A DNA stretch of 64,000 nucleotides, from positions 17,770 through 81,769 of the forward strand of contig DAISYU010000001.1 of NCBI GenBank assembly GCA_036825155.1, given 5' to 3'. This document shows, in pieces, positions 46,605 through 62,786 of this stretch; position 1 is the stretch's first letter, and each line of letters opens with the position of its first letter. This DNA is from Thermodesulfobacteriota bacterium. Its GTDB lineage: Bacteria; Desulfobacterota; Desulfomonilia; UBA1062. Under the pieces are notes generated by a model. It searched no databases. It had not been told where the DNA came from and saw nothing but the letters and a program-made list of their open reading frames with translations. A program made the translations under genes and the position numbers.

Positions 46605-46782
46605 TCATCTCAGTGTTCTCACCCGGATCTGGACACGCTATAAAAAAGGGAGATCGCCCTGGGTGTCATATGAACGCGTAATGATATGCCTGCTGATGAC
46701 AAGCAAAGTTCAAGTATACATAAGTTCTTAAGAATATTTAGATATAGATGCGGAGTGTTTTAATAACTTTTCTGGAGGGAAG

Positions 46783-47829
46783 ATGTCTGAAAAACAGAGC
46801 AAGGTTATGAATGCGAAAGATGCCGTCAGCCGTTTCGTGCATGACGGTGATCATCTGGTTATCGGCAACTATACCGTCGGGACCTGCGCAGAGCTTGCAT
46901 TCGAGATCATCCGTCAGGGAATCAAAGGGCTTACCCTGTATTCCCAGTCAGGGGTTTTTGACGTGGAGGTCCTGGTGGGTGGCGGATGTGTGGACAGATT
47001 GGTTTCCACCTATGTGTATCGTGCAGGAGGGAAAGAAGGGGGTTCTGCGGTTGAGCGTGCAATCAAGGCAGGAACCCTGGAGATGGAGGACTACACGAAT
47101 TTCCAGTACAACGCCCGAATGGAGGCAGGCAAGCATGGGTTCAGCTTCATGCAGGTGCTGGAAGGACCCATGGTGACGGACCTGTTCAAGAAACGCACCT
47201 TTATGGGAGATGACAAGTACAGGGTGATCACGTGCCCGTATACGGGTAAGGATATTCTCACGGTTACGGCTGCAACGCCTGATGTATGTATCGTGCACGT
47301 CCAGCGGGCTGACAGGTTCGGCAACGCTCAGTACTGGGGCGCCCTGGGCAGCGTTGCAGCTGCAGCCCTGGCCAGCAAGCGGATTGTGATCTCGTGCGAG
47401 GAGATTGTGGAGCACGATGTGATCCAGTCCAGTCCCCACCTGACCATCATACCTGCGTATCGCGTCGATGCGGTCGTCGAGGTTCCCTGGGGTGCACATC
47501 CCACAGAGGTGCTCGGCTACTACAACCTGGACCGTCTCATGTATGCGATGTTCTTCATCTCGGACATGACCGGAGACGGACTGAAGGCATGGATGGATGA
47601 ATGGGTGTACGGATGCAGGAACCGGGAAGCCTACATCGATCATTACCTGGAGAAATTCGGCGCGGGAATGCTCAATGACATCAGGGCAAAATCCTACTTT
47701 TCCGCACCGGCGAACTATGGATCGGCATTTACCTCCTGCTGGGACCTTGAAGACAAGGAACGAACCCTGGGTATTACCCTGGAAGAGATGGAGAAGATCC
47801 TGGAAGAAAGGGGGATGCTCTATGGCTAA
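46783..47829 (+). CDS. Two-subunit CoA transferase, alpha subunit (glutaconate CoA-transferase-like)
   Basis: VHDGD, PDVCIVHVQRADRFGNA, VVEVPWGAHP; GGAGG RBS. Confidence 0.88.
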   Translation: MSEKQSKVMNAKDAVSRFVHDGDHLVIGNYTVGTCAELAFEIIRQGIKGLTLYSQSGVFDVEVLVGGGCVDRLVSTYVYRAGGKEGGSAVERAIKAGTLEMEDYTNFQYNARMEAGKHGFSFMQVLEGPMVTDLFKKRTFMGDDKYRVITCPYTGKDILTVTAATPDVCIVHVQRADRFGNAQYWGALGSVAAAALASKRIVISCEEIVEHDVIQSSPHLTIIPAYRVDAVVEVPWGAHPTEVLGYYNLDRLMYAMFFISDMTGDGLKAWMDEWVYGCRNREAYIDHYLEKFGAGMLNDIRAKSYFSAPANYGSAFTSCWDLEDKERTLGITLEEMEKILEERGMLYG

Positions 47830-48646
47830 GAAATACACGCTTGATGAACTGCTGATTATCACCGCTGCACGGGAGATCCATGATTACGAGAACATTATCC
47901 TGGGAGTAGGGCTGCCAACCACTGCAGGGGCACTGGCCAAGGCCATTCACGCACCGCATGCAACACTCATGATGGAATCGGGTATCATAGACTTCGAGCC
48001 GCTGGTTCCACCGAATCATATTGCCGATGCCCATTCATGCAGGGGATTTTCCTATGCCACCGATCTGTTTTCAGCCTTTACCATGACCTACAGGGGATTT
48101 GTGGATGTATGTTTCCTCGGTGTGGCTCAGATTGACAAGTACGGCAACATAAACACCACGGCGATCGGCGACTACTACAAGCCGAAGCTGAGGCTGACGG
48201 GCTCCGGCGGGGCGGCTGATTTCATCTCCTACGCAAGGCGAACCATCCTGACCATGCGTGGTGGGGAATTCGTGGACAAGCTGGACTATTTCACCTCACC
48301 GGGTTACCTCGACGGCGGGGACAGCAGGGAGAGGGCCGGCCTCTTTCCCCCCGGGTCCGGGCCGTCCATGCTGCTGACCACAAAAGGGGTGTTTCGTTTT
48401 GATGAGCAGACAAAGGAGATGTATCTTGCCAGGACACATCCGGGAATGAGTATAGATGACATCAGAAAGGATATCCCCTGGGAGTTGAAGATTGCAGACG
48501 ATGTCTCCACCACTGACAGGCCTACAGATGAGGAGATTACCTTTATCAGGCGGTTCGCTCCCACCGAAGTGGTGGGAAGAAAGCTGATGTTCGAACTCGG
48601 GCTGGCCAATGCCGCCAGGAAAGCCCAGGAAAAGAATAACGGATAG
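47822..48646 (+). CDS. Two-subunit CoA transferase, beta subunit
   Basis: Start MAKKYTLDEL at ATG 47822 overlapping the alpha stop; catalytic-type MESG, LGVAQIDKYGNINTT, GSGGA, FTSPG. Confidence 0.9.
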   Translation: MAKKYTLDELLIITAAREIHDYENIILGVGLPTTAGALAKAIHAPHATLMMESGIIDFEPLVPPNHIADAHSCRGFSYATDLFSAFTMTYRGFVDVCFLGVAQIDKYGNINTTAIGDYYKPKLRLTGSGGAADFISYARRTILTMRGGEFVDKLDYFTSPGYLDGGDSRERAGLFPPGSGPSMLLTTKGVFRFDEQTKEMYLARTHPGMSIDDIRKDIPWELKIADDVSTTDRPTDEEITFIRRFAPTEVVGRKLMFELGLANAARKAQEKNNG

Positions 48647-48958: not shown

Positions 48959-50020
48959 ATGACGGATATATATGAGCAATTGCGCAGGCGCCTCGATGAA
49001 ATGGCCACGGGATATCCCGCGACCGAAAGCGGTGTGGAGATCAGGCTGCTGAAACAGCTGTTCCGTCCGGAAGATGCCCGGATGTTCCTCTCAATGAGTA
49101 CATACGCACAGACTGCCCGTGAAATTGCGGAGAGGACAGGGACAGATACGGACACCACTGCAGCAGTGCTTGAGGATATGGCGCTTCGAGGGCTTGTATT
49201 CAGAGAACGCACAGAGGGGATGAGCTACTACCGGGCGATCCCTTTTATTGTCGGGATCTATGAGTTTCAGATCAATGCCCTCGATGGGACGATGCTCAAG
49301 AACGTTTCCGAGTACTATCTGTCGGGATTGGGTCAGTCGTTCCACTCCCTGAAGACCCCGCACCTGCGCACGATCCCTATCAACAGGGACCTGGTGTCGA
49401 AGTGGCCTGTTGCAACCTATGACGATGCAGTCTCGATTATTGAGAGAAAAGACCGCATTGCCGTGGCCCCGTGTCTCTGCCGCAAGGCGGTCCGTATGTA
49501 CTCTAAAGGCTGTGACCACCCACTGGAGACCTGTCTTCAGTTTGATACGTTCGCGGATTACTATGTGGACAACTCCATGGCACGCTACATTACCAAGGAT
49601 GAGGCTCGTGCCATCCTTGCCCGCAGCGAGAAAGAGGGCCTGGTTATCCAGACTGCGAATTCCAAAGAGGTGGAGGCCATGTGTTCCTGCTGTTCCTGCT
49701 GCTGCGGCATGCTTATCTCGCTCAAGCTGTTCCCTGCGCCGGCCCGCGAAGTGAAGAGCAACTATGTCTGCACCTCGAATGAAGGTTCGTGCACCCTCTG
49801 CGGTATGTGCGTCAAGCGCTGCCCCGTTGATGCCGTTGAACTTCTTGAAGAACATGCACATACCCATGAAGAACGCTGCATAGGGTGCGGGCTGTGCGTG
49901 AGCACCTGTCCTGCCGAAGCACGAACCCTTACAAGGAAGCCTGAAGAGAAGATCTATACCCCTGCGGATACGTTTTTCGACACCTTTGAACAGATGTGCG
50001 AGGAGCGCGGCAGGGATTAA
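48959..50020 (+). CDS. 4Fe-4S binding protein with N-terminal winged-helix-like region
   Basis: PCLCRK, CSCCSCCC, and two CxxCxxCxxxCP motifs at the C-terminus; 353 aa. Confidence 0.88.
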   Translation: MTDIYEQLRRRLDEMATGYPATESGVEIRLLKQLFRPEDARMFLSMSTYAQTAREIAERTGTDTDTTAAVLEDMALRGLVFRERTEGMSYYRAIPFIVGIYEFQINALDGTMLKNVSEYYLSGLGQSFHSLKTPHLRTIPINRDLVSKWPVATYDDAVSIIERKDRIAVAPCLCRKAVRMYSKGCDHPLETCLQFDTFADYYVDNSMARYITKDEARAILARSEKEGLVIQTANSKEVEAMCSCCSCCCGMLISLKLFPAPAREVKSNYVCTSNEGSCTLCGMCVKRCPVDAVELLEEHAHTHEERCIGCGLCVSTCPAEARTLTRKPEEKIYTPADTFFDTFEQMCEERGRD

Positions 50021-50026
50021 GGCTTA

Positions 50027-50971
50027 CTACGGATGCTTGCTCTCACTGTTTTTCTGCCGGTAGCGGATCAGCCGGAAGAACGAGCCCCAGAACCAGTGGG
50101 TCAGTTTGTGCAGGTGTATGCCGATACCTTGCCCGAAGATGGTCCAGCCCAGTTTGCGATGCCACTTGATGAACAGACCGAAATGGCTGCTGGAGACCTT
50201 GCCCCCTCTGATGTACCAGCATTTGGGTGCGAGCTTCGGTTTCCACTTGCCGGTGATGACCTTCAAGACTTCCAGGGCGGCCAGGCTTACCGCCATCCAT
50301 TCCACAGTACAGATGAGGGCAAGGGGCCGTTTTCCGAGGAAATAATCCCAGAACCAGTCTACACGCCAGTCTCCCGCGGTGATGAAGTTGTATTGCGCAC
50401 ACCGGTACTCCCGGGAATGCACGACCTGTTTCAGCCCGTTGTAGTTGAGCGTGGGCACGCCGAATACATCCTCGATGGTCGGGGTTTCCGGTGTAAAGAC
50501 GCTGATCCATCCGATGGATCCGGACGGCAGGCACAGTACGGCAGGTTTCTCAAGTTTCCTGGCAGCCCGGAAGATGAGGACGCTGTATGAAAGGTCATCC
50601 ACTGCAGGGATCACCACGTCGCATTGCTCGATCAGTTGATCCAGGTCTTCTTCAGTGGGGAGCGTGTGGAACGAGGTAACCTGTGCAGCGGGGTTGATTT
50701 TCAGAATTGTCTCGGACATCAGGGTGATCTTGTTTTCGCCTATCGTATCTGTGAAGCATCCGATCTGACGGTTCATGTCACCGGCCTCGTATATGCCCTG
50801 GCCGGCAAGGATAAAATGTTCAACCCCGCACCGAGACAGCAGTAATGCAAGCGTCTCGCCGGAACCGCTGTCGCCGATGATCAGCACCTTAACAGACCTG
50901 ATACGTTCCTGATCATCCTCGGTGAAGACCCCGTAGTTTCGTTCGAACAGGGCCTTGTACGTCAGGTCCAT
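50027..50971 (-). CDS. ThiF/HesA/MoeB (E1-like) family protein, degenerate nucleotide-binding motifs
   Basis: RNYGVFTE..Q.RI..KVLIIG start; P-loop reads GDSGSG; EAGDMNRQ replaces DxxxxSNxNRQ; Trp-rich C-terminal extension. Confidence 0.85.
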   Translation of the reverse strand: MDLTYKALFERNYGVFTEDDQERIRSVKVLIIGDSGSGETLALLLSRCGVEHFILAGQGIYEAGDMNRQIGCFTDTIGENKITLMSETILKINPAAQVTSFHTLPTEEDLDQLIEQCDVVIPAVDDLSYSVLIFRAARKLEKPAVLCLPSGSIGWISVFTPETPTIEDVFGVPTLNYNGLKQVVHSREYRCAQYNFITAGDWRVDWFWDYFLGKRPLALICTVEWMAVSLAALEVLKVITGKWKPKLAPKCWYIRGGKVSSSHFGLFIKWHRKLGWTIFGQGIGIHLHKLTHWFWGSFFRLIRYRQKNSESKHP

Positions 50972-50993
50972 TGTCCCCCCTCAGGGAATTTCA

Positions 50994-51959
50994 TCAAGGC
51001 TTACTCCCCCTGCGCTCGCGAAAATGCCCCCATGCAATGAACAGTTTCCACCAGATCTCCTGAGCCCACTCCAGTACGGGTGACAACCTGGTCTGAAACA
51101 GGCGCCACATGATCTTCCGCTGCCAGACCAGCAGTGTCTGCAGGTTCAGACCGCCTATGCGGTTGATCCTGATGGCGTTCGCGGTGATATTCCAGTAGCG
51201 AGGCGATACTACCGGCTTCCATTTGCCGCTGAGCACCTTGAGCACCTCGAGCGAGCCGAGCGACGAACACAGCCACACAGAGGGGGCTATATGGGTGGGG
51301 GAAGAATCCTCCTCGATAAAGGAGCGGTAGTAGTCGATCCTCCAGTCGGCAAACGGAACATAGAAGTACGTGCCGAACTTGTATTTTCTGATGGCGAGCA
51401 TTTCCTTGAGCTCTTCATACGATCCCAGTGTGGGTACTCCCTCGATGTCCTCCACCGGTGGACTGTCCGGCATGAGTATGCAGACATTCGCCCAGGTGCC
51501 GGATGGGAATATCAACAGGGCAGGTACCCCCAGTCTCTGGGCCTCCCTGAATACGATTACACTGAATGCAAGATCGTCGGCAGCGGGGAATACCACGTCA
51601 ACCCTGGGAATCAGCTCGGAAATCCTCTCATGGTTCAAGAGCTCGGGATATACCTCCACCTGGGCATCAGGATTGATCTTCATGATCTGCTCTCGTATGA
51701 CCTCGGCCTTGTTTCTGCCCAGCGTGTCGGTAAAACAGGCAATCTGCCGGTTCATGTTGGAGAATCCGTAGTTGTCGAATTCCACCAGAATGAAATTACT
51801 CACCCCTGAACGGGCAAGAACAATAGCGACAGTACCGCCAATGCCGCCGCACCCGATAATGAGGACTTTCGAGGTACGGATACGGTCCTGTTCTTTCTCG
51901 GTGAAGACTCCGTAGTTTCTCAGGAAAAGCTCTTGGTAGCCAGGTAGTATATTCATCAA
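50994..51959 (-). CDS. ThiF/HesA/MoeB (E1-like) adenylyltransferase family protein
   Basis: KVLIIGCGGIG, EFDNYGFSNMNRQ, GRNKAE, AADD; no CxxC zinc sites; Trp-rich C-terminal extension. Confidence 0.9.
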   Translation of the reverse strand: MMNILPGYQELFLRNYGVFTEKEQDRIRTSKVLIIGCGGIGGTVAIVLARSGVSNFILVEFDNYGFSNMNRQIACFTDTLGRNKAEVIREQIMKINPDAQVEVYPELLNHERISELIPRVDVVFPAADDLAFSVIVFREAQRLGVPALLIFPSGTWANVCILMPDSPPVEDIEGVPTLGSYEELKEMLAIRKYKFGTYFYVPFADWRIDYYRSFIEEDSSPTHIAPSVWLCSSLGSLEVLKVLSGKWKPVVSPRYWNITANAIRINRIGGLNLQTLLVWQRKIMWRLFQTRLSPVLEWAQEIWWKLFIAWGHFRERRGSKP

Positions 51960-52603
51960 TCCTTTCTTCTATGATGCAATCTGACAGGCAACAGCCCATG
52001 CACAAGTGTAGACAGGAGACATGCTGCTCCCGCACCGATTGCAACGTAGTATGGTTGCAGAAAATACATGAAGACATCGACGTCCACAGTGTAGTGTATA
52101 ATGCCAAGGCCGACAACCGGCATATCCACCAGGGTGCATGCAAACAGAAGCGATCCGAAGAATCCCGCTGCATAGGCAAGCATGAACAAACCGCTCCACA
52201 TGATGAAGAGCCGCCCCTTTTTCCCGGGCATGGTGCTGCCCCAGAAGGCAAGGAACAGGTATCCGAAAAGAACCACCGGGAGCAGTATGACCGCTATGAT
52301 CGGGGTTTCGATAACATACTTGAAGCCTTCAGGCGGAAGATTGTGGATCAGGATGAAGGGATACGCATCGATGGTATACATCCTGTCGTAGACATCTCCG
52401 CGCCACCAGGGGAAGAAGATGGTGCTGAAAAAGACGATTCCGGCAGCCAGGCCGAAAATATTGTAGATGGTGAATTCACGGAAGTGGCCGGTAAACGTCT
52501 TGAGTATATGCCTCATACCCTGGGGATTTGATTCATCCTGCGCCAGACTCCGGCGCGTTGCATCATCGATGAAGATGTTTTCCAGGATCTTAAGAAATTT
52601 CAT
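51956..52603 (-). CDS. Hypothetical membrane protein (about 4 TM)
   Basis: 215 aa; stop overlaps the ThiF start (ATGA). Confidence 0.8.
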   Translation of the reverse strand: MKFLKILENIFIDDATRRSLAQDESNPQGMRHILKTFTGHFREFTIYNIFGLAAGIVFFSTIFFPWWRGDVYDRMYTIDAYPFILIHNLPPEGFKYVIETPIIAVILLPVVLFGYLFLAFWGSTMPGKKGRLFIMWSGLFMLAYAAGFFGSLLFACTLVDMPVVGLGIIHYTVDVDVFMYFLQPYYVAIGAGAACLLSTLVHGLLPVRLHHRRKD

Positions 52604-52695: not shown

Positions 52696-54030
52696 TCAGC
52701 CGGCCAGCACGGCGTCTACTGCATGTGCGAGCTTCTCCTTCGCGGCTGCGATGACATCAGCATCGGACCAGAGAAAGGCCAGCAGGTCCTCTGCCCGGAT
52801 ATGCGCAAAACACAGCAGCAGGATCGGGCAGATTCCGAGCGTCATGGCCAGGGCCGTCTTCTTCTCCCAGGTGTCATATTCATCCGCTGAGCCTGTGGGC
52901 ACAATGCGAGGTATGCCGGATCCGAACATGCGGTAGAACTCAAGTGAGACAGCTCCGGTATCTGAGCTGTTCGCAGTATCCACTGAAGCTGAATGGTTCG
53001 AGGCAAAGAGATCTATGTGCGAGCAGGCTTCCTCGGTAGGAGTGGTCTGGTCCAGCCCTGCAGCTGCGGCAGACGGGTCGATCCCGTTTTCGATACAGTG
53101 TTTCAGCAGCACAACGGCATCAGCCGGGCGCTTCTTTGACAATGCGGCGAATCCTTCATGGTCCAGCAGGAAGACCCCCTGTTTCTTTCCTGCTTTAAAA
53201 AGACTGTGCGAACCAGCCTGAGGGAACTCGAGATAACTCATGCAGGGAAACGGACAATGGTAGCATGCATGGGCCTTCTTGAAATGTTTCTTGATCAGTT
53301 GAGAAGCGGCCTCGCCGGAACCCATGCTTTTCTGCACCACAAACCGGGGGGTGCTGTACTGGTTCTTCAGTGCCGAAGCCATGGGGCCGCTCATTTCTAT
53401 GGCGTGTTCAGGGAAGCGGATCCCTCCGGCAGCCTTCAATGCAATGGCCCGTATATTCTTCTGCCCGACCGCGCAGCCCAGAGAAGCCTTGTCCAGACTG
53501 CCCCAGAGCCCGGTGGAGAGGCAGGCATGTGCAGAGGAGTTATCCGCGGCATTGCCCGTGAGCAGGACGATCTCGGGACAGTTCCTGCCTCGGGCCAGCA
53601 GCAAGTCTTCCCGCTTGGAAAGATCTCCTGCGAGGGTATCGCCTGGAGTGATCCTGATGGTATTGTCTATCAGCTCGATGATCACGGGGGTCTCGCTGCG
53701 GCCTGTGATCACAAGGAAATCAATCCCCGAGAATTTCAGCTGTGGCCCCGTATTGAGCATGAAGGGGACATGCATCACCTTGTTCCCGTTCGAGTAAAAG
53801 CTTGCCGTCATCAGGCACGATGCCGGGGCAAAACTTCCGGTGAGAGGTCCGGTGCCGAATACCAGAGGGGCGTTGTCTGCATAGCGTTCGAGGAGCACGG
53901 TGCTGAGGCGGACCCCTCCTGTATGCTCGGCGAAGAGTTCAGAGGGAAGATCTATGGTCTCCACTGATGAATTCTCGAGATTCACCAGCGCCATCTTTGC
54001 ATTATAAAAAGGGGTCATGAGTACGTCCAT
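52696..54030 (-). CDS. Degenerate aldehyde:ferredoxin oxidoreductase (AOR) family paralogue
   Basis: AOR N-domain traits (LVFGTGPLTG, GPQLKFSGIDFLVITG, KNIRAI), ACYHCPFPC and LGIC; lacks EYET and DPR. Start at ATG 54030 or coupled ATG 54018. Confidence 0.8.
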   Translation of the reverse strand: MDVLMTPFYNAKMALVNLENSSVETIDLPSELFAEHTGGVRLSTVLLERYADNAPLVFGTGPLTGSFAPASCLMTASFYSNGNKVMHVPFMLNTGPQLKFSGIDFLVITGRSETPVIIELIDNTIRITPGDTLAGDLSKREDLLLARGRNCPEIVLLTGNAADNSSAHACLSTGLWGSLDKASLGCAVGQKNIRAIALKAAGGIRFPEHAIEMSGPMASALKNQYSTPRFVVQKSMGSGEAASQLIKKHFKKAHACYHCPFPCMSYLEFPQAGSHSLFKAGKKQGVFLLDHEGFAALSKKRPADAVVLLKHCIENGIDPSAAAAGLDQTTPTEEACSHIDLFASNHSASVDTANSSDTGAVSLEFYRMFGSGIPRIVPTGSADEYDTWEKKTALAMTLGICPILLLCFAHIRAEDLLAFLWSDADVIAAAKEKLAHAVDAVLAG

Positions 54031-55313
54031 GCTTTGACTTCTCCTGGAATGGTTTTCTGCCAGCGAAAGCGGATCTTTGCGGAGCTGTACGGGCAGGTGT
54101 CCACACAACGCATACACAAGATACACTCGTCCATGGGGATCTTGGGCGCGGTCCCCTCTCTGAGGGCTTCACGGTCGATGATGCCCATGGGGCAGATGTC
54201 GGCGCACTGCATACAGGAAAACTTCTTGCACTGCTTGGCCCCGATCACGATCTTGATCAGGCCTATCTTGGCCGCCAGAGCCAGTACGGCACCCACCGGA
54301 CAGAAGTAGCGGCACCATGACCTGCGCTGTCCCAGTTCAAGGCTTGCGATGGCAGGCACAATGGCAAGTTCTGCTCCCTGCAGCACCCCCGATACCCCGT
54401 ACGACCTGCAGATGCTTCCGATGGGGCATACCGTGCAGAAGGGCTGGAATCCCAGGCCGGCAGCCCCGCCGATCGCTCCGCCAAGGATCCCGTACTTGAT
54501 CATGCGGCTTTTCAGAAATTTCGGCAGGCCGAACTTGGGGACGACAGAGCCCACCAGGTCGAGGAAGAACCCGAAGGGACATACCCATCCGCAGAAGGCC
54601 CTGCCAAGAAGGATAGTCAGTACGATGAGCACGAGGGCAGCACCGGCGCTGGCGAACACGATATGCTTGGTTGCGGCGATATTCTGCAGGGTCCCGGTGG
54701 GACAGGGCAGAGAGACCACCCCTGCCGTGAAATAACAGAACGTGCCCACGAGGACCACCACCAGGAGCAGGAATGAGAGCAGCTGTACCGGCCAGCGCAG
54801 ATATTTGATCCATCCTACGGCCTTACCCCGATAGAAGTGCAGTGCCCCTTCAGGACAATGTTTGACGCACAGGGGGTCACCCTCGCACAGGTCGCATTTT
54901 CTGATCTTGCCGGTCACCGGTTCCACCATCGGGGCCGATTCAGGACAGGCAAGGGTGCAGATCCCGCATTCCACACAGAACAGGCGCCTGATGCGCACGA
55001 TTCCTTCATCGTCCTTGTCGATCGCGCGGGTAGGGCAGGCTTCCAGGCAGAGGGGTTCTCTGCAGTGCAGACACAGGGCCGCAAAGTTCTTGCCTTCCTC
55101 TTCGTTGCGCAGGACCTTTATGCTTGACGACGCCGGCGCCACTTTGTCCACATTCCGGTTGGAACAGACCATCTCGCAGGTCGAACACCCGGTACATTTT
55201 GAGGGATTGAATACAATGACCGGCGGATGTCTGGGCAGTTTCTTCTTGGCAGGCAACGGTCTTAAGTCCTTGATATCTATATATTCAACTTGTTTCTGGG
55301 CAGCTTCGGGCAT
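54015..55313 (-). CDS. Fusion of a 4x[4Fe-4S] ferredoxin (DmsB/CooF-like) and a NapH/MauN-like membrane polyferredoxin
   Basis: CTGCSTCEMVC, CLHCREPLCLEACP, CVECGICTLACP, CDLCEGDPLCVKHCP; then TM helices with CGWVCPFG, CTVCPIG, CRYFCPVG, and two C-terminal clusters. Confidence 0.88.
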   Translation of the reverse strand: MPEAAQKQVEYIDIKDLRPLPAKKKLPRHPPVIVFNPSKCTGCSTCEMVCSNRNVDKVAPASSSIKVLRNEEEGKNFAALCLHCREPLCLEACPTRAIDKDDEGIVRIRRLFCVECGICTLACPESAPMVEPVTGKIRKCDLCEGDPLCVKHCPEGALHFYRGKAVGWIKYLRWPVQLLSFLLLVVVLVGTFCYFTAGVVSLPCPTGTLQNIAATKHIVFASAGAALVLIVLTILLGRAFCGWVCPFGFFLDLVGSVVPKFGLPKFLKSRMIKYGILGGAIGGAAGLGFQPFCTVCPIGSICRSYGVSGVLQGAELAIVPAIASLELGQRRSWCRYFCPVGAVLALAAKIGLIKIVIGAKQCKKFSCMQCADICPMGIIDREALREGTAPKIPMDECILCMRCVDTCPYSSAKIRFRWQKTIPGEVKAWTYS

Positions 55314-55330: not shown

Positions 55331-55786
55331 TTACGCATTCCTCAGCAGATATACTTTACGCCTGCAGGCGGGACACATTTCAAGGTATCCCTTGGGTTCA
55401 TCCTTGAGTCGCTCGGTGATAAAGTCCATGACGTGCAGTGCAGCGAAGAGTTCACCGCAGCAGGTGCAGGTGCGGATATCCTTGACCGTTCCCTGCTGGA
55501 TGGCCAGTTGTCTGAGTCCTTTTATGAGATCGCGGTCACTCACCCCTGCAGGGCATACGTCGGTGCCGGCATTGCACTCGGTGCAGTACCAGATGTATTC
55601 GTCGGCAAGGATATCCTCTCCCATCATGACCTTCTTGATCACCCCGCGCGGTGACATCTCGATGGAAAAATTCGGGTACATCTCTGCCATGGGGCACACT
55701 GCCACGCAGCGGCCGCACTCCACACAGCTGTGCGCACCGGAGGCAGTCATGATATCTCTAATCTCTTTTGCACTCTTCATCTTCAT
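55331..55786 (-). CDS. HdrC-like 4Fe-4S protein with C-terminal CxxC...CxxC
   Basis: CVECGRCVAVCP, CTECNAGTDVCP, CTCC...CPAC; ATG 55786 overlaps the fdhA stop (ATGA). Confidence 0.85.
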   Translation of the reverse strand: MKMKSAKEIRDIMTASGAHSCVECGRCVAVCPMAEMYPNFSIEMSPRGVIKKVMMGEDILADEYIWYCTECNAGTDVCPAGVSDRDLIKGLRQLAIQQGTVKDIRTCTCCGELFAALHVMDFITERLKDEPKGYLEMCPACRRKVYLLRNA

Positions 55787-57813
55787 TCCTTCTCCATACG
55801 AGCAGCACATGCCTTGAATTCCGGTATCTTCGAGATCGGATCGAGTTCCTCGATGGTCAGTGCGTTGGCCGGTGCCTCTCTGAAGTGGAACGGTGCAAAG
55901 ATCGACCCTTTCCTGACCCGGGAGGTGATCTTCGCATTCGTGCTGATGGATCCCCTGCGTGTACTCACCCTGATGGCGTCACCGTCTCTGATACCCAATG
56001 AATGTGCATCCGCAGGACTGATCTCCACAAAGGGCTTGTCCACCTCTCGGTGAAGGAAATGCGATCGCCTGGTCATTGTGCCGGTATGATAGTGAGAGAA
56101 CATACGGCCGGTAATGAGCGTATACGGATACGTTTCGTCTGGCATTTCTTTGGGCGGCGTATAGCCCGGGACAACAAAGAGTCCCTTTCCGCGTGAGAAT
56201 CTGCCTTCATGGAGAAAGCGGGTACCGGGATGTGTGTCTTCCGGACAGGGCCATTGCAGACCGGCGCTTCCCAGTCTGTCGAAATGCACACCACCCATAA
56301 TCGGGGTGAGTGACGCGACCTCATCCATTACCTCGCCGGGGTCGGCATATGGGTAATCAAGTCCCAGCGCCTTTCCCATCATGCACAGGATGGTGAAGTC
56401 GTCCCTGGCGTCTCCCGGTGGTTCGACGGCCTTGCGGAGCAGCTGGATCCTCCGCTCGGTATTGGTAAAGGTGCCGGTCTTCTCCGCGTAACATGCACCC
56501 GGCAGCACCAGGTCGGCGAGTTTGGCGGTCTCGGTCAGGAAGATATCCTGCACGATCAGGAAATCGAGTTTGTGCAGGGAGTCGATCACATGACTCTGGT
56601 TCGGATCGGACAAAACAGGATTCTCCGCCATAATGTACAGTGCGCGGATCTTCTTTCCGGCCGAGCCAATGATCTCCGTGACAGTCATGCCGGGGGTAGG
56701 TGAGAGTTCCCTGCCCCAGGCATCCTCGAACTTCCTGAGGATATTCGCATCGGCAACGGTCTGGTACCCGGGGTAGACATTGGGAAGCGCCCCGAGGTCG
56801 CACGCCCCCTGCACATTGTTCTGCCCCCTCAAGGGGCAGATACCCGAGTGCGGTTTGCCGACATGTCCGCACAGCATGGCAAGATTGCATATGGCAAATA
56901 CGTTGGCAGTGCCGCAGGCATGCTGGGTGATTCCCATACAGAATACAATGGATGCTTCCTGCGCGCGGGAATATATCTCTGAAACCCGCGCGATCTCTTC
57001 GGCTGCAATCCCTGATTCATCACTGGCCTCCTCGACGCTCCACCCTGAAAGGTATGCATCCAGCGCATCAAAGGCCTCGGTCCTCTCATTGATGAAATCA
57101 CGAGCCTCCAGGCCCTGGTCGAGAATGTACCGCATCATGCCGTTTATCAGCGGGATGTCGGTGCCGGAGTTGATCTGGAGATGGATGTCGGCGTTGGCAG
57201 CCACCTCGGTTCTCCTGGGATCCACCACGATCAGTGTCGCCCCGTGATCTTTGGCCTTGTAGATCTCGCCCATGATGATGGGGTGGGTTTCCGCAGCGTT
57301 GGAACCGAAGATGATGATACACTCAGCCCCGGTGAAATCGCTGATGGAGTTTGTCATGGCACCGCTGCCCAGGGCCTGCGCCATGGCAGCTGCCGTGGGA
57401 CCGTGACAGAGCCGTGCACAGTGGTCGACATTGTTGGTCTTGAACCCGGCTCTGATCAGTTTCTGGAACAGGTAATTCTCCTCATTGGTGCACTTTGCGG
57501 AGCTCAGTCCGGCAACGGCGTCCGGACCGTAGCTCTCGGCTGCTTCCTTGAGCTTCTTCGCAGCGAGATCGATTGCCTCCTCCCACGATATTTCCTGAAA
57601 CTCTCCGTTCTTCTTGAGCAGGGGCCGGGTGAGCCTGTCCGGATGATGGATAAATTCGTGGGCTGCCCAGCCTTTGATGCACAAGGTACCTTTGGCTACG
57701 GGATGTTTCCTGTCAGGCAGGGTCCTGATGGCCTTGCCGTCTTCAACCTGCAGGATAAACCCGCACCCGGTGCCGCAATAAGGACAGATCGTCTTTACAA
57801 AATCACGTTTCAT
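55783..57813 (-). CDS. fdhA: Cytoplasmic formate dehydrogenase alpha subunit (FdhF-type, Cys-ligated Mo/W-bis-PGD)
   Basis: TICPYCGTGC, SSAKCTNEENY, HCARLCHGPT (Cys, not Sec), PLRGQNNVQGACD, HYHTGTMTRR; no Tat signal. Confidence 0.95.
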   Translation of the reverse strand: MKRDFVKTICPYCGTGCGFILQVEDGKAIRTLPDRKHPVAKGTLCIKGWAAHEFIHHPDRLTRPLLKKNGEFQEISWEEAIDLAAKKLKEAAESYGPDAVAGLSSAKCTNEENYLFQKLIRAGFKTNNVDHCARLCHGPTAAAMAQALGSGAMTNSISDFTGAECIIIFGSNAAETHPIIMGEIYKAKDHGATLIVVDPRRTEVAANADIHLQINSGTDIPLINGMMRYILDQGLEARDFINERTEAFDALDAYLSGWSVEEASDESGIAAEEIARVSEIYSRAQEASIVFCMGITQHACGTANVFAICNLAMLCGHVGKPHSGICPLRGQNNVQGACDLGALPNVYPGYQTVADANILRKFEDAWGRELSPTPGMTVTEIIGSAGKKIRALYIMAENPVLSDPNQSHVIDSLHKLDFLIVQDIFLTETAKLADLVLPGACYAEKTGTFTNTERRIQLLRKAVEPPGDARDDFTILCMMGKALGLDYPYADPGEVMDEVASLTPIMGGVHFDRLGSAGLQWPCPEDTHPGTRFLHEGRFSRGKGLFVVPGYTPPKEMPDETYPYTLITGRMFSHYHTGTMTRRSHFLHREVDKPFVEISPADAHSLGIRDGDAIRVSTRRGSISTNAKITSRVRKGSIFAPFHFREAPANALTIEELDPISKIPEFKACAARMEKE

Positions 57814-58657
57814 GGTTCACCTTCAATGAATCCAGCCACCCGGGCTCCATGAGGGGCGGGCACGGCTCGATAGTCAGATCGCTGAGCACCGGAGAGAGCC
57901 GCTCCAAATCTGTTCCGGCTTCATATCCGTAATTGTTTGCCAGGGTTTCACGCATGGCAACCTGCAGAAGCATCAGGGGAATATTGACCGGGCAGGCATC
58001 CGTACATCCGCCGCAGGCAACGCACGTATCAGACAGGTGAAATGCCCTGATAAGGTGGTAGGACACCATATCCGCAGGGATCTCGCCGCGTCTGACCCAC
58101 AGATCGTCTTCCAGTTTACAGGGTTCACATACACAGATCGGACACGAATTTCTGCATCCGTAGCATTTGATACACCTGCTGAGTTCGGCCGCCCAGTGCT
58201 GCATCCGTGTGCCTGGATCGTCCGAAAGAAACATTCTTGCCCGTTCATCTTCGCGGGGATCAAATCCCTCTGACTTCTCACCCAGGGCGATCGAGGCAGG
58301 GTAGGGTTTTGTACACAGGCATATTCGAGCCTGCTCGGCACTGCAGGCCAGTCCTATGACATGCAGGCGTGCAGGGTCGAACTGGTTGCGCTTGGAAAGT
58401 TCATTCAAGGCCCGTTCATCACAGCCCCGGCAGATGATGCCCAGCCGGTAGTCTTGTGGGGACGAGCGCAGGATGTTCATGGCCAGCTTGGCAAGCAGCC
58501 ATTTGGGCTCAAGTTCCAGCATACCGGTCTCCGCGGCAACCTCGAAGACATACGGATAGGGTTCGTCTTCCACCCGTGCCAGAGCCAGCACCCCGTCAAC
58601 CAGGCCTTCTTCGAGTGCGTTTTTGGCCTTGAGCCGTGCATCTTCTACTAGACTCAC
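57803..58657 (-). CDS. FdhB/FlxC-like 4Fe-4S subunit
   Basis: CRGCDERA, IGLAC, CIKCYGCRNSCP, CVACGGCTDACP; GTGA-coupled to mvhD. Confidence 0.85.
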   Translation of the reverse strand: MSLVEDARLKAKNALEEGLVDGVLALARVEDEPYPYVFEVAAETGMLELEPKWLLAKLAMNILRSSPQDYRLGIICRGCDERALNELSKRNQFDPARLHVIGLACSAEQARICLCTKPYPASIALGEKSEGFDPREDERARMFLSDDPGTRMQHWAAELSRCIKCYGCRNSCPICVCEPCKLEDDLWVRRGEIPADMVSYHLIRAFHLSDTCVACGGCTDACPVNIPLMLLQVAMRETLANNYGYEAGTDLERLSPVLSDLTIEPCPPLMEPGWLDSLKVNHET

Positions 58658-59142
58658 GTATCACCTCTTCTGTAATCGTTCATATTTGACCGTGACCATG
58701 CCTGAACCGGCGGCAGATCCTGAAGCCTGCGATAAAACTCCCCGATGACATCTGCAAACTGATGGTGTTCATGGGCGGTGCCGAAGCTGGTGAAGAGGCG
58801 TCGGGAATCAATCCCCACCGTATCCAGCAGCGGTCTCAAGAGTTCAAGCCTTTTGGCTGCACGGTGGTTGGCGTTATTGTAGCGGCAGCCGCCCAGGTGG
58901 CAGCCCATCACCGCTACACCGTCTATTCCCGAGGAAAAAGCCCTGATGACCGCGTCAGCCTCGACACGTGAGGCACATTCCACCGGGATGACCCGGAAAT
59001 TCACGGGAAGCTGTACCTTGTTCTTTCCTGCCGCATCTGCACCGATAAGCGCGCACCACTTACAGGCAAATACCACTACCTTTGGTGCTGCGTTGTGTCG
59101 GGTGCTCTCGGCATGATCACTCAGCAGTATCTCTTGTGTCAT
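58654..59142 (-). CDS. mvhD: MvhD/FlxD-like [2Fe-2S] subunit
   Basis: FACKWC...GADAAG, VECASRV, GCHLGGCRY. Confidence 0.92.
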   Translation of the reverse strand: MTQEILLSDHAESTRHNAAPKVVVFACKWCALIGADAAGKNKVQLPVNFRVIPVECASRVEADAVIRAFSSGIDGVAVMGCHLGGCRYNNANHRAAKRLELLRPLLDTVGIDSRRLFTSFGTAHEHHQFADVIGEFYRRLQDLPPVQAWSRSNMNDYRRGDT

Positions 59143-59155
59143 AGCGCACCTTCTC

Positions 59156-60862
59156 TCAACTAAAAGCAGCTTTCAGCATCTCTCCGATGAGGAGAGCGTT
59201 TTGTTCCGGCAGCTGGATCGAACCGTTGGGACAGACCGAAACGCAGCTCCCGCAACCGGTACAGCGCATCTGACTGACTGTGCTCTTGTATGCTCCCTGA
59301 TCCGCCTCCAGGCTGCAGGCATCATAGGGGCAGATGGCCACGCAGTTTCCGCACCCGGTACATGCCTGCCGGTCCACCAGGGCCAGGGAAAATTTACGTT
59401 CCTTAAACTGGCTGATTTGTGTGGCCGTGAGCTGATCAGTGTTCAGCAGGGCAAAGGCCTTCATTGCGGCCGCTTCACCCTGCAGGATCGCTGTGCGGGC
59501 CAGCACCGGCCACCTGGCGGACCCGCAGACCAGCACACCGTCTTTGGTAGTCTCCAGGGGATGCATCAGAGAGCGCACCTCGTAGAAACCATGTATATCA
59601 CGATTGAGGTCGAACAGTTCAGCCACTCTGGCGGCATCGTCATGCGGGATCAGCGGAGAGCTGAGCACCACCAGTTCGGCATCAATTCGCCGTTCTCTGC
59701 CGGTGATGACATCATAAACCCTGATTTCCTCCACCTGTTCGGCGCCGAGGATCCCCGGGGGTGTGTCCTGATCGTACCGGACGAACCGGACGCCCGCCTC
59801 CATTGCCTTGCGGTAATAGTCCTCCAGAACACTGCCGGGGCACATGATATCCCGGTGGAGTATCGTCACCTCAGCATCCGGGTTTTCCTCCAGGAGCTGT
59901 ATTGCCTGCTTCAGGGACACCGGGCAGCAGATAGCCGAACAGTACGGTCTGTCGGCATCACGTACGCCCACGCACTGGATGAAGACAGCGGAGGTGACCT
60001 TCATGCCGGGGCCCTTGAAACTCCGTTCGAGCTCGATGCCGGTGATAACCCCCTTGAGCTCCTTGTACCGGTATAACGATCCCGGCAGGTTGACCCGTGC
60101 ACCGGTTGCTATGATGACCGCCCCGACATTGATGCTCTTGACATCACTACCGGATGTGAACTCGACGGTGAAATCGCCTGCAGACCCTCGCACAGCGGAA
60201 ATTCGACTGCCGGGATAGTAGCGAACCAGGGGGGAGTTGCCCACTGTGTACAGGAAAGCCTCCACATGTTGTGGGGTTCCGTCGGTTTCAGGGGCAATCT
60301 TCTTGATCAGGTTCAGCAGGCCACCCGGGGTCTTGGCCCGGTCCAGGAGGTGTACCGTAATCCCCAGCTTCACCAGGGAAGCGGCAGCGGAGATCCCTGC
60401 AGGTCCTGCCCCGATAACGAGCACTTCCTGCTTCGGTTCGATCGTCAGATCTTCAGAATAGTTACGCTGCACCAGTGCGGCGATACCCATATTTATGAGA
60501 TCACCGGCTTTTTTTGTGGCTGAGGCGGGGTCATCACGGTGTATCCAGGCACATCCCTCGCGGAGATCCACCAGTTCTATATGTTTCGGATCAATGCCTC
60601 TTTTCTGAAGCCCGGTGATTATCGCATCACCCCTGGCCAGGAAGGAACAGGCCCCCAGCAGAACCCTGGATTCCGGTGAAAGGGGGATGCGCTTGGCCAG
60701 CTCATCGATATTCTCTTCAAGACAGAGAGACTTTACCTTTTCACACGATACGATCCGGGGATGATGCTCGAGTCCCTTGCGGATTGATTCAAGATCGACA
60801 ACATCGGAGATCTCACCGTAACACTCGCAGAGAAAGCACCTGGTTTGTTTGTTGTCTTCCAC
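59156..60862 (-). CDS. HdrA-like FAD/Fe-S flavoprotein (QmoB-like architecture without fused MvhD)
   Basis: N-terminal HdrA domain (CFLCEC, GACS, LREGCAWIH), GAGPAG, FIQCVG...CSAICC, two C-terminal clusters; GTG start overlaps the upstream TAG. Confidence 0.9.
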   Translation of the reverse strand: MEDNKQTRCFLCECYGEISDVVDLESIRKGLEHHPRIVSCEKVKSLCLEENIDELAKRIPLSPESRVLLGACSFLARGDAIITGLQKRGIDPKHIELVDLREGCAWIHRDDPASATKKAGDLINMGIAALVQRNYSEDLTIEPKQEVLVIGAGPAGISAAASLVKLGITVHLLDRAKTPGGLLNLIKKIAPETDGTPQHVEAFLYTVGNSPLVRYYPGSRISAVRGSAGDFTVEFTSGSDVKSINVGAVIIATGARVNLPGSLYRYKELKGVITGIELERSFKGPGMKVTSAVFIQCVGVRDADRPYCSAICCPVSLKQAIQLLEENPDAEVTILHRDIMCPGSVLEDYYRKAMEAGVRFVRYDQDTPPGILGAEQVEEIRVYDVITGRERRIDAELVVLSSPLIPHDDAARVAELFDLNRDIHGFYEVRSLMHPLETTKDGVLVCGSARWPVLARTAILQGEAAAMKAFALLNTDQLTATQISQFKERKFSLALVDRQACTGCGNCVAICPYDACSLEADQGAYKSTVSQMRCTGCGSCVSVCPNGSIQLPEQNALLIGEMLKAAFS

Positions 60863-62085
60863 TATTGTTCCTCCCCCACATGCACCCGAAGCGCAGCCGA
60901 TGATGCCTGGACAACAGATGCCTCGACATCCATTGGTTCACGGCAGAATCCGCAGGACTTTATAGTTGGACTGATACCGCTGAGCAGCCCCTCGGTATCG
61001 AGTATGGGACTGTACCCGGAGTCCTTTGATTTTGCCAGGGACGGCTGCAGTGCCCCGTTGAGCACCACCATGTCGAACTTCCTGATCTGCCGTGACTGGG
61101 TTATGGTATTCTCATATTTTACGGCGATCCCGTCTTCGTCAGGCATGGGATAAATAAGTCCCGGTCTTCCCCTGAGGAGCTCAATGGACGAACCGCCTAT
61201 CTCCCTTAGATAGTACTCATAGTAGTGTCTGCCCTCGGCACGCATGTCAGTGAAGAAGATGACGCATTGCACCTGCGGATTGCGCCGCTTTACCCACTGG
61301 GCCTGTTTGAGGGCATGCATGCAGCAGACCGCCGAACAGTAGGGAAAGAGTCTCAGGTCCCTGGCTCCGGCGCATTGGATGAATGCGATGCTTGCAGGCT
61401 GCTTGTTGTCTTGCTTTTTAACAACGGTTCCCCGGTTGAGGCCGGACTCGGCAGTCCATTCTTCGAACTGCAGGGAACTCATGATATCGGGATGGGTCCC
61501 GTAGCCGTATTCCTCGAGGGGTGAGATGTCGTAGTCCTGAAATCCGGTGGCCCAGATCACGTCCCGGGCAAGGATCTCGCTTGAAGCGGCTTTTCTGTTA
61601 ATATCAATGGCGGAGGTGGGACATACATCCACACACTTACCACAGAGGGTACATTTTTCTCTATAAATATAGTATGATGGCGGGTATGCATGTGCACCCA
61701 GGGTGCTGATGGCATCGACGCCGCATGCGGGCACACACCTTCCACATGAGATACACCGGTTCTCGTCGATATACCGGGGGTGTTCATCCACGACCACCTT
61801 CAAGGCCCCGTCGGTCTTGGTGATGGTGTTGATCTCGGCGCAGGTATGTACGGTGATCAGAGGGTTCAGCATACAGTTGCGTACTTCGGTCCAGAGAGGA
61901 CAGAAGGCACAGTGATCCGTGGGATAGAGCTTGTCAAGGGCTGATACCTGTCCACCCAGGGCAGGGCCTTTCTCCACCAGATGCACGGCGGTCCCTGCTC
62001 TTGCCAGATCAAGGGATGCCGTGATCCCGGCGACTCCACCGCCGATGACAATGACTGGTTTCATGTGAGGGGGCTTGGCAGACAT
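60862..62085 (-). CDS. HdrA-like FAD/Fe-S flavoprotein (short form with inserted ferredoxin domain)
   Basis: GGGVAG, LDKLYPTDHCAFCP, two inserted CxxCxxCxxxC, FIQCAG...CSAVCC; 407 aa. Confidence 0.9.
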   Translation of the reverse strand: MSAKPPHMKPVIVIGGGVAGITASLDLARAGTAVHLVEKGPALGGQVSALDKLYPTDHCAFCPLWTEVRNCMLNPLITVHTCAEINTITKTDGALKVVVDEHPRYIDENRCISCGRCVPACGVDAISTLGAHAYPPSYYIYREKCTLCGKCVDVCPTSAIDINRKAASSEILARDVIWATGFQDYDISPLEEYGYGTHPDIMSSLQFEEWTAESGLNRGTVVKKQDNKQPASIAFIQCAGARDLRLFPYCSAVCCMHALKQAQWVKRRNPQVQCVIFFTDMRAEGRHYYEYYLREIGGSSIELLRGRPGLIYPMPDEDGIAVKYENTITQSRQIRKFDMVVLNGALQPSLAKSKDSGYSPILDTEGLLSGISPTIKSCGFCREPMDVEASVVQASSAALRVHVGEEQ

Positions 62086-62096
62086 GGGTGCTCCTC

Positions 62097-62786
62097 TTAC
62101 TTATTGATCAGGCCATAGTGACTGGCCAGCTTCCTGATCCTGCTTCCCAGCCACTCCCCGAAACTCGGCGGCGGGAAATCATAGGGGCCGACATTATCCT
62201 CTTGTTTAAGAGCAAGGATCTTTTCGGAAGGTTGAAAGCGTTTGACCTTGTCGTAATATACCACGATCGATTTTGGATCGGTGGGGCAGCGGGTAAAACA
62301 TGCGCCGCAGCCGATGCACTTGTCCTCGATGACTACGGGATTCTTCCGGTCCTCCAGTTCAATAGCGTCATACTTGCATGCCTTGTAGCAGTTACGGCAA
62401 CGACGCTTGTTGGTCCAGGCGAGACAGGTGTCCCGGTTGATGACCGCGTTGCCGATGTCAAGGTCCTCTTTGGCAACCTTCTTGATCGCACCGGTGGGGC
62501 AGGTCCTGATGCATTCCATGCACAGGATGCACTTGCGCCAGTCCAGTACAGGGGTGCCGAGATTGGGGATGCCGTCAAAGATCGAGGCCGGAGACAGAGC
62601 GTCTGCAGGGCAGACGTCAATGCAGCGGTAGCAGCGGGTACAGTGTTTGAGGAACTCCGCTTCCACGAGTGAAGCAGGAGGCCGGGGCAGCGCCTTTGCC
62701 CCGCTGACCTTGAACACGGTAAAGACCGCACCAGAGGCCACGCCACTGATCAGAATTTTCATAAAGTTCCTGCGCGAGTTCTCCAT
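62097..62786 (-). CDS. NapG/MauM-like ferredoxin with twin-arginine signal
   Basis: SRRNFMK, LPRPPAS...EFLKHCTRCYRC, four Cys clusters. Confidence 0.85.
   Translation of the reverse strand: MENSRRNFMKILISGVASGAVFTVFKVSGAKALPRPPASLVEAEFLKHCTRCYRCIDVCPADALSPASIFDGIPNLGTPVLDWRKCILCMECIRTCPTGAIKKVAKEDLDIGNAVINRDTCLAWTNKRRCRNCYKACKYDAIELEDRKNPVVIEDKCIGCGACFTRCPTDPKSIVVYYDKVKRFQPSEKILALKQEDNVGPYDFPPPSFGEWLGSRIRKLASHYGLINK

Follow-up and report, generated by a model that had tools for sequence, protein, structure and literature searches.

The fusion protein and its conservation

We analyzed an operon on contig DAISYU010000001.1 of a Thermodesulfobacteriota bacterium (assembly GCA_036825155.1), within a stretch of 64,000 nt that we call the window, and in particular its gene for a 432-aa protein in which a four-cluster ferredoxin domain is fused to a NapH-like membrane domain. 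All coordinates are positions in the window, and both the fusion gene and the operon lie on the minus strand. The gene and its domains are as follows.

54015..55313, minus strand: fusion protein, 432 aa; an open reading frame (ORF) with an ATG start, Pfam and NCBIfam matches and 33 conserved cysteines, present as one ORF in 80 genomes
54828..55220, minus strand: residues 32–162 of the fusion, AorA/WorS/DmsB-type domain with four [4Fe-4S] motifs and 16 conserved cysteines, matched in PDB and by Foldseek
54330..54812, minus strand: residues 168–328, NapH-like four-helix membrane domain, assigned from the NapH alignment, AlphaFold2 helices, hydropathy and counts of lysine plus arginine (K+R)
54069..54251, minus strand: residues 355–415, C-terminal two-[4Fe-4S] domain, with Fer4_7 and Fer4_10 matches and aligned with the C-terminus of Escherichia coli NapH

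Proteins were compared with Pfam and NCBIfam profiles, by sequence matching to PDB and by fold matching with Foldseek, and structures were modeled with AlphaFold2. For the fusion, Pfam placed Fer4_11 at residues 77–160 (above the cut-off), two stretches of the NapH-type family Fer4_5 (best at 225–264) and C-terminal dicluster matches at 355–409. Among the NCBIfam models, residues 187–420 aligned to positions 49–282 of the 286 positions of the NapH model NF007013, and residues 32–162 aligned to DmsB-, PadI- and YdhY-type models, the latter below the curated cut-offs. The NapH/MauN family cut-offs were not reached either, the scores being 114.9 bits for NF007013 (cut-off, 234) and 108.5 bits for TIGR02163 (cut-off, 213). 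The alignment with E. coli NapH extended over all four helices, both CX3CP motifs and both terminal clusters; no solved structure for the NapH-like part was found by PDB sequence or fold search. An earlier reading of this DNA from its letters and ORFs only (hereafter the sequence-only reading) had described the ORF as a four-cluster ferredoxin followed by a NapH-like membrane domain and two terminal clusters, a description with which the ORF, Pfam, NCBIfam and alignment results agree.

Among solved structures, AorA of Aromatoleum aromaticum (8c0z_C, E 1e-29) came closest to the N-terminal domain, with 39% identity in the fold match. The next PDB matches were the WOR5 small subunit (6x6u_B, 6x1o_B) and the Fe-S subunit of a bifurcating tungsten oxidoreductase (WOR; 9mqx_E), and BamC (4z3w_E, 2.9e-08) came after the WOR small subunits. 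With AorA as its closest solved relative, the domain is of the small-subunit type found with aldehyde oxidoreductases (AORs), as previously proposed.

We aligned 114 full-length fusion homologues (clusters at 90% identity) and found 33 conserved cysteines in the family. Sixteen belong to the ferredoxin motifs of the N-terminal domain (C40/43/46/50, C81/84/89/93, C113/116/119/123 and C140/143/149/153), four to two CX3CP motifs (C241/C245-P and C334/C338-P) and eight to the C-terminal cluster motifs (C362/367/370/374 and C397/400/403/407). The remaining five, C193, C204, C293, C296 and C302, have no cysteine counterpart in the alignment with E. coli NapH. The LPCP motif named in the sequence-only reading is that of C204 and is conserved in the family; the three CxxxCP motifs counted there are reduced to two, because the third, FCTVCP (C293-x2-C296-P), is a CxxCP motif and not CX3CP.

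The AlphaFold2 model of the fusion contained helices at residues 168–191, 217–235, 265–286 and 307–327, and the family-averaged hydropathy and the K+R counts of the loops agreed with four helices, so that the estimate of about four membrane spans made from the sequence was upheld. According to the K+R counts, both termini and the loop after helix 2 are predicted to be inside the cell, and since the fusion has no signal peptide, its N-terminal ferredoxin domain is predicted to be cytoplasmic. Both CX3CP motifs are likewise predicted to lie on the cytoplasmic side of the membrane, whereas the helix and charge topology places C193, C204, C293, C296 and C302 at the outer face. The predicted topology agrees with the one published for E. 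coli NapH (Brondijk et al. 2004).

To our knowledge, no quinone-site motif has been defined for NapH.

A database search yielded more than 110 protein clusters of 400–490 aa that contain both domain types in a single ORF. Their hosts belong to Desulfomonilia, Desulfobacterales, Syntrophales, Syntrophobacterales and Desulfovibrionales. The fusion is also present in complete genomes, such as those of Desulforapulum autotrophicum HRM2, Desulfosarcina alkanivorans and D. widdelii. In every relative not interrupted by a contig end, the match covers both halves of the protein. A frameshift or an assembly artefact, considered as a possible origin of the fusion in the sequence-only reading, can be ruled out, since complete genomes and at least 114 clusters (90% identity) contain the fusion as one ORF. 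At 50% identity, the fused family reduces to essentially one full-length representative among 1.8 billion representatives.

We searched the same 1.8 billion representative proteins with the NapH-like half alone. Its nearest relatives were stand-alone proteins of 235–356 aa with 36–44% identity, and the motif CxxCPxGxxC was present in 18 of the 25 top relatives (27/149 overall). As most near relatives share this motif, the fusion is a member of an 'extra-cysteine' branch of NapH-like proteins. Its four-cluster N-terminal extension is peculiar to the operon with AOR, NapG-like and Hdr/Fdh-like genes (Fdh, formate dehydrogenase). Stand-alone members found in the search (P0243–P0261) carry the outer-face motifs xCPxGxLQ and CxxCPxGxxC, which are lacking in classical NapH, and this NapH-like subfamily with outer-face cysteines seems to have remained undescribed so far. 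Other fusions also occur among these relatives: N-terminal ferredoxin domains are found in P0283 and P0317 and a glutamate-synthase-like domain in P0258, and P0366 is a fusion of NapG with NapH.

The operon and its two sets of proteins

Three contigs (L001–L003) are identical to the window, run past its end and show the complete operon. The order of its genes is: a 235-aa Fer4_11 protein, a 603-aa AOR, a 229-aa NapG-like protein, HdrA-like proteins of 407 and 568 aa, MvhD, a 284-aa Fe-S protein, FdhA, an HdrC-like protein, the fusion and a 444-aa AFOR_N protein. In most cases, adjacent genes overlap or are separated by gaps of <20 nt. Apart from the fusion gene, the part of the operon inside the window consists of the following genes.

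62901..64000, minus strand: 3' part of the gene for the full-length AOR, or WorL (603 aa in full), with AFOR_C at 6.8e-86; the 5' part lies off the window
62097..62786, minus strand: NapG-like four-cluster ferredoxin, 229 aa, with a twin-arginine (Tat) signal; NapG models below cut-off; predicted periplasmic
60862..62085, minus strand: HdrA-like flavoprotein, 407 aa, with an FAD domain and an inserted two-cluster ferredoxin; HdrA2 1.1e-88, positions 139–496
59156..60862, minus strand: HdrA-like flavoprotein, 568 aa, with N-terminal, FAD and C-terminal ferredoxin domains; HdrA2 4.5e-94, PDB 8rvu_a 1.3e-62
58654..59142, minus strand: MvhD-like [2Fe-2S] protein; Pfam FlpD 2.3e-38
57803..58657, minus strand: FdhB-like Fe-S protein, 284 aa; PDB 9t1s_M 6.6e-32 and 7bkb_E 3e-30
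55783..57813, minus strand: FdhA of the cysteine type (CARLCHG), without a Tat signal; TIGR01591 830 bits, cut-off 666
55331..55786, minus strand: HdrC-like two-cluster protein, 151 aa, the 5' neighbor of the fusion; Fer4_8, HdrC and QmoC models, all below cut-offs
52696..54030, minus strand: trimmed AOR-fold protein, 444 aa; AFOR_N only (Pfam); its start overlaps the fusion stop by 16 nt

To examine its conservation, species-representative genomes were scanned with the fusion, and the best 80 of the 250 relatives found were kept as loci. Genes of the operon were counted in the 46 loci with ≥9.5 kb of upstream sequence, and immediate neighbors of the fusion gene in 76 loci (upstream) and 69 loci (downstream). 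The AOR, the NapG-like, both HdrA-like and the HdrC-like genes were all present in 46/46 loci, MvhD in 45/46, the FdhB-like gene (284 aa) in 43/46 and FdhA in 42/46. The HdrC-like gene lies directly upstream of the fusion gene in 59/76 loci, and the gene for the 444-aa AOR-fold protein directly downstream in 61/69. The locus in the complete genome of D. autotrophicum HRM2 contains the identical eleven genes in identical order. The gene order is constant from Desulfomonilia to Desulfovibrionales at identities of 48–90%, and the operon is nearly unchanged across at least five orders of Desulfobacterota. The FdhA gene is relocated 3' of the fusion gene in Syntrophobacter, and is absent or displaced in Desulfovibrio and Mailhella. 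The fused architecture is therefore common (80 genomes), but in none of these cases was it part of a nap, nos or mau operon, the context in which the sequence-only reading allowed that it might prove familiar: no nap, nos or mau catalytic genes were found in the cluster of the window or in the 80 related loci. Among the genomes surveyed, there was also none that combined the Hdr-like part and the fusion without NapG and WOR.

On the periplasmic side, the sequence-only reading had correctly recognized the product of 62097..62786 as a NapG partner. It is present together with the fusion in 46/46 loci, shares 32% identity with E. coli NapG and begins MENSRRNFMK...AKA, with the twin arginines kept in every orthologue that has a complete N-terminus. 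The same reading had found no periplasmic terminal reductase for this NapG in the operon, a statement that does not hold beyond the end of the window. The AOR frame is open up to that end, the gene is intact in L001 and L002, and directly upstream of it, just past the window end, lies the gene for WorS, the 235-aa four-cluster ferredoxin. The N-terminus of WorS, MEKDEKNVGKIMKKETTRRGFLKGAGTAAGVAVAAAAVGGVRPAAAKA, is a canonical Tat signal (TRRGFLKGAG...AKA), the twin-arginine motif of which is kept in 13/13 orthologues with a complete N-terminus. No Tat motif was found in the AOR itself (0/53 orthologues). Since WorS has a Tat signal and the AOR has none, the full-length AOR is probably periplasmic by hitch-hiker export, and judging from these sequence features it is likely to be the periplasmic partner of the NapG/NapH-like pair.

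WorL matched P. furiosus AOR (PDB 1aor) at 1.2e-97 and 331 bits and is thus a genuine large subunit of the AOR family. Its scores were 135 bits against E. coli YdhV and 181 bits against BamB, so that by sequence comparison it appears nearer to the classical AORs than to YdhV. The locus has the gene layout of Class V WORs, that is, a Tat-signal WorS beside WorL, together with NapG/NapH-like genes in the operon. A 2026 classification of WORs defines Class V by a Tat-signal WorS and describes it as membrane-associated and periplasmic; its hosts include Desulfovibrio and Syntrophobacter, and its function is given as unknown (PMC13328260). According to the same source, a characterized, purified Class V WOR showed no aldehyde oxidation.

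We also considered a class II benzoyl-CoA reductase (Bam) cluster, as Bam likewise combines AOR, HdrA and MvhD. This candidate was ruled out by the score of WorL (331 bits to the classical AOR compared with 181 bits to BamB), by the Tat signal of WorS and by the absence from the cluster of the NuoEFG-like and HdrB-like (CCG-domain) subunits of Bam.

In L003 (positions 1156–2413; GCA_035396385.1), the AOR was called as two fragments of 117 and 267 aa, whereas the otherwise identical L001 and L002 encode the intact 603 aa. The split is likely a local assembly or frameshift error in that metagenome-assembled genome.

The second AOR-related protein, encoded directly 3' of the fusion gene, is shorter. 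Its AlphaFold2 model (predicted local distance difference test score (pLDDT) 92) superposed in Foldseek on whole AOR structures with TMq 0.74 and 16–19% identity. A profile comparison aligned it over the N-terminal domain only. Its invariant C256, C259, C263 and C401 are the four [4Fe-4S]-binding cysteines of AORs. This protein diverges much faster than the fusion (about 35% identity compared with about 65%), and because it evolves fast and only its N-terminal domain is recognizable by sequence, it may not be catalytic. It is absent in 8/69 loci (Desulfosarcina-type and Syntrophobacter) that retain the fused ferredoxin domain; docking of the 444-aa protein therefore cannot be the sole role of that domain. 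The cytoplasmic AOR-family module to which the sequence-only reading tied the fusion is not supported in that form: an AOR-fold gene adjoins the fusion gene in 61/69 loci, but the protein is trimmed to 444 aa and is absent in eight.

On the cytoplasmic side, FdhA surpasses the equivalog cut-off for formate dehydrogenase and has the Cys-His active-site motif CARLCHG at residue 132. In three Syntrophobacter loci (L063, L065 and L066), the FdhA homologue is split into two in-frame ORFs that lie side by side, of 160–197 and 541 aa, which by sequence would fit a selenocysteine TGA codon; FdhA of the window has cysteine there. In the solved Fdh-Hdr complexes of methanogens, it is the C-terminal half of FdhB that the FdhB-like protein matched. 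The HdrC-like protein matched HdrC models at 1e-13 to 1e-16 and the qmoC model at 7e-9. As the equivalog matches fall below cut-off, we regard the HdrA-, MvhD- and HdrC-like proteins as relatives and not as orthologues. No CCG/HdrB domain was found by Pfam in the proteins of the cluster or in the precomputed Pfam annotation of the 21-kb locus. For the HdrC-like gene, the mechanical ORF starts at 55810 (159 aa) and public annotations start at 55786 (151 aa); we prefer the latter, because its 4-nt overlap with the FdhA stop is better suited to translational coupling.

A proposed path for electrons across the membrane

Taking these observations together, we consider it somewhat probable that the fusion carries electrons across the membrane as a subunit of a complex conserved in Desulfobacterota, and thereby connects a periplasmic WOR/NapG arm to a cytoplasmic Fdh-MvhD-HdrA-HdrC module. 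In such a complex, the N-terminal four-cluster and the C-terminal two-cluster domains of the fusion would be cytoplasmic, and the NapH-like helices would cross the membrane. Outside, the NapG-like ferredoxin would pair with the fusion and contact the exported tungsten AOR (WorL of 603 aa with WorS), the two subunits having been exported jointly by means of the WorS Tat signal. Inside, the ferredoxin domains of the fusion would connect to the HdrC-like protein and from there to the two HdrA-like proteins, MvhD, the FdhB-like protein and FdhA; the trimmed AOR-fold protein would usually belong to this cytoplasmic set as well. The fusion would occupy the place of HdrB, or that of the QmoC membrane domain in Qmo, and we propose this place because the module corresponds to the formate-Hdr set of methanogens minus HdrB and resembles QmoABC. 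In this position, it would tie a branch of the flavin chemistry of HdrA to the membrane or the periplasm.

The formation of a complex by these proteins, the direction in which its electrons would flow and their route, which may lead by way of menaquinone (as assumed for NapH) or directly through Fe-S clusters, are inferences that go beyond the domain architecture, conserved cysteines, Tat signals and synteny described above. The acid/aldehyde couple has a very low potential (about −580 mV), and for this reason inward flow is favored: the oxidation of aldehydes in the periplasm, feeding the cytoplasm, appears to be the most plausible direction. As for the route, the five extra cysteines on the periplasmic side may hold an additional cluster that would allow direct passage. 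A bolder version, which we regard as rather unlikely, is that these cysteines bind an added Fe-S cluster that forms a quinone-independent wire together with the CX3CP site, and that the whole would be the first HdrA-type bifurcating machine with a periplasmic catalytic arm, in which a Tat-exported tungsten AOR would be coupled directly to formate/CO2 and ferredoxin in the cytoplasm.

Several points weigh against a membrane-spanning complex of this kind. The complex, the export of the AOR and any activity are deduced from sequence and synteny. Every NapH, NapG and HdrC match falls short of the curated family cut-offs. For the fusion, AlphaFold2 gave a model of no more than moderate confidence (pLDDT 68), and the loop with C293, C296 and C302 has pLDDT <50. 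FdhA and the AOR-fold protein are absent or have moved in some lineages. An AOR that oxidizes aldehydes at about −580 mV would have no obvious need of a bifurcating flavoprotein, which leaves the logic of the machine unclear. Finally, as a purified Class V WOR showed no aldehyde oxidation, the periplasmic substrate may not be an aldehyde.

Other readings of the operon assign the fusion a smaller part. It is conceivable, although we give this only a low probability, that the fused AorA-like domain docks the 444-aa AOR-fold protein and wires it to menaquinone through the NapH-like domain, while NapG is repurposed and has no enzyme. AOR large subunits normally pair with a domain of the AorA type, and the 444-aa protein, the gene of which overlaps the fusion gene and follows it directly in 61/69 loci, has the full AOR fold and the [4Fe-4S] ligands. 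However, the operon encodes a Tat-signal WorS beside a full-length AOR, which supplies NapG with a putative enzyme; the 444-aa protein is missing from 8/69 loci in which the fused domain is retained; and its faster evolution and its recognition by sequence in the N-terminal domain only suggest that it may not be catalytic. We consider it improbable that the fusion acts with NapG as a quinol dehydrogenase of the NapGH type, passing menaquinol electrons through NapG to the periplasmic WOR as a terminal reductase of a substrate of fairly high potential, with cytoplasmic Fe-S domains that would serve only for redox balancing, as proposed for NapF/NapH. Such a function would be in line with the homology to NapG and NapH, and with the report that the substrates of Class V WORs are unknown and that one of these enzymes does not oxidize aldehydes (PMC13328260). 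On the other hand, the AOR is far closer to true aldehyde oxidoreductases (1aor, 331 bits) than to YdhV (135 bits), the reduction of acids by menaquinol is thermodynamically out of reach according to established redox potentials, and the invariant linkage to HdrA, MvhD and HdrC as well as the additional four-cluster domain would be left unexplained.

Slightly less probable still is a Qmo-like arrangement in which the fusion is merely the membrane or quinone anchor of an HdrA-HdrA-MvhD-HdrC(-Fdh) module, with WOR and NapG as a separate system that shares the operon. Two HdrA-like proteins, MvhD and an HdrC-like protein beside a membrane Fe-S protein amount to the domain content of QmoABC, and the qmoC model matches at 7e-9. 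Against this, the NapG-like and NapH-like proteins are homologous to a pair known to interact and occur with WOR in 46/46 loci, and the extra conserved cysteines at the periplasmic face argue for a periplasmic contact.

Under our preferred reading, in which the fusion links the periplasmic WOR/NapG arm to the Hdr-like module as one complex, the operon would provide a physiological role for the 'Class V' tungsten enzymes and would reveal which protein can partner HdrA-type bifurcation in bacteria in place of HdrB. It would also be a test case for whether electron passage through NapH-like proteins proceeds via quinone or directly across the membrane. The operon is experimentally tractable, as it has a cultured host with a complete genome in D. 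autotrophicum HRM2.

Neighboring genes and relation to known systems

Directly 3' of the operon (50027..52603, minus strand) lie genes for a 215-aa multi-pass membrane protein without a Pfam match and for two ThiF/MoeB-like E1 proteins of 320 and 314 aa. The same trio is found near the cluster in the opposite orientation in three other loci (L039, L054 and L055), and in several loci of Desulfovibrio, Mailhella and Syntrophobacter the cluster is followed by a single ThiF-like gene. A role of the ThiF/MoeB-like genes in the sulfur chemistry of the pterin cofactor is possible. On the divergent side (48959..50020, plus strand) is a gene for a 353-aa protein with a faint MarR-like match at the N-terminus and a two-[4Fe-4S] ferredoxin domain at the C-terminus (CCSCCCG and CxxCxxCxxxCP motifs), which by its sequence is a candidate redox-sensing regulator. 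Further away (43944..48646, plus strand) are genes for an 886-aa AdhE-type aldehyde/alcohol dehydrogenase and two CoA-transferase subunits, which lie beside the operon here and not in HRM2; these neighbors are a hint of alcohol and aldehyde metabolism in the vicinity.

Sulfate reducers and syntrophs live near the thermodynamic limit and depend on membrane complexes that shuttle electrons among the periplasm, the quinone pool and the cytoplasm. The electron-transfer sets known to us from these organisms (Qmo, Dsr, Hmc, Tmc, Qrc and Rnf) include no module of the NapGH type. The operon unites a tungsten AOR that is probably exported, a NapGH-like module to which a polyferredoxin is fused and an HdrB-less Fdh-MvhD-HdrA-HdrC set, a combination not previously described. 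Our literature search found no paper on the fusion, on its extra cysteines or on its association with an Hdr/Fdh module. The 2009 genome paper on HRM2 draws the locus (hdrA3, Aor5 and 'Fe/S cluster protein') and assigns it no function.

The fusion resembles NapH (E. coli, Wolinella), MauN and NosH in its four helices, two cytoplasmic CX3CP motifs and two C-terminal [4Fe-4S] motifs, and the NapGH pair in that the partner gene encodes a Tat-signal four-cluster homologue of NapG. NapH-like proteins have been treated as modular transmembrane electron-transfer units (PMC8238504). The fusion differs from NapH in scoring about half of the curated cut-offs and in its added N-terminal four-cluster domain and five extra, predicted periplasmic cysteines. 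It also differs from NapH, MauN and NosH in its surroundings, as the putative periplasmic enzyme partner is a tungsten AOR and there is neither a nitrate reductase nor any other nap, nos or mau gene nearby. The N-terminal 130 residues share the four-cluster fold and motifs of AorA, WorS and BamC (39% identity to AorA). Unlike those proteins, which are free subunits, the domain here forms part of a membrane protein; moreover, the neighboring AOR-fold gene encodes a protein trimmed to 444 aa, and the full-length AOR has a Tat-signal WorS of its own.

With Class V WORs (E. coli YdhYVWXUT and C. somerae WOR41), the operon shares a WorL with a Tat-signal WorS, extra membrane subunits and a predicted periplasmic location. 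Its membrane partner, however, is of the NapGH type with Hdr/Fdh modules and not a YdhU-type cytochrome b, and whereas clade 41 of Class V is YdhV-like, WorL here scores higher to the classical AOR (331 compared with 135 bits). The cytoplasmic part resembles the FdhAB-MvhD-HdrABC complexes of methanogens (7bkb, 8rvu and 9t1s), as FdhA and the FdhB-like, MvhD, HdrA-like and HdrC-like proteins are encoded together. In contrast to those complexes, the operon has no HdrB and hence no heterodisulfide site, HdrA is split over two genes, FdhB is cut to its C-terminal half, and the place of HdrB after the HdrC-like protein is taken by the membrane fusion. In domain content only, the operon is also similar to QmoABC, with two HdrA-like proteins and MvhD-like and HdrC-like modules tied to a membrane domain that probably interacts with menaquinone. 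QmoC, however, consists of a heme-b domain of the HdrE type fused to an HdrC-like domain, whereas the operon described here encodes a heme-free Fe-S protein of the NapH type together with a predicted periplasmic NapG partner.

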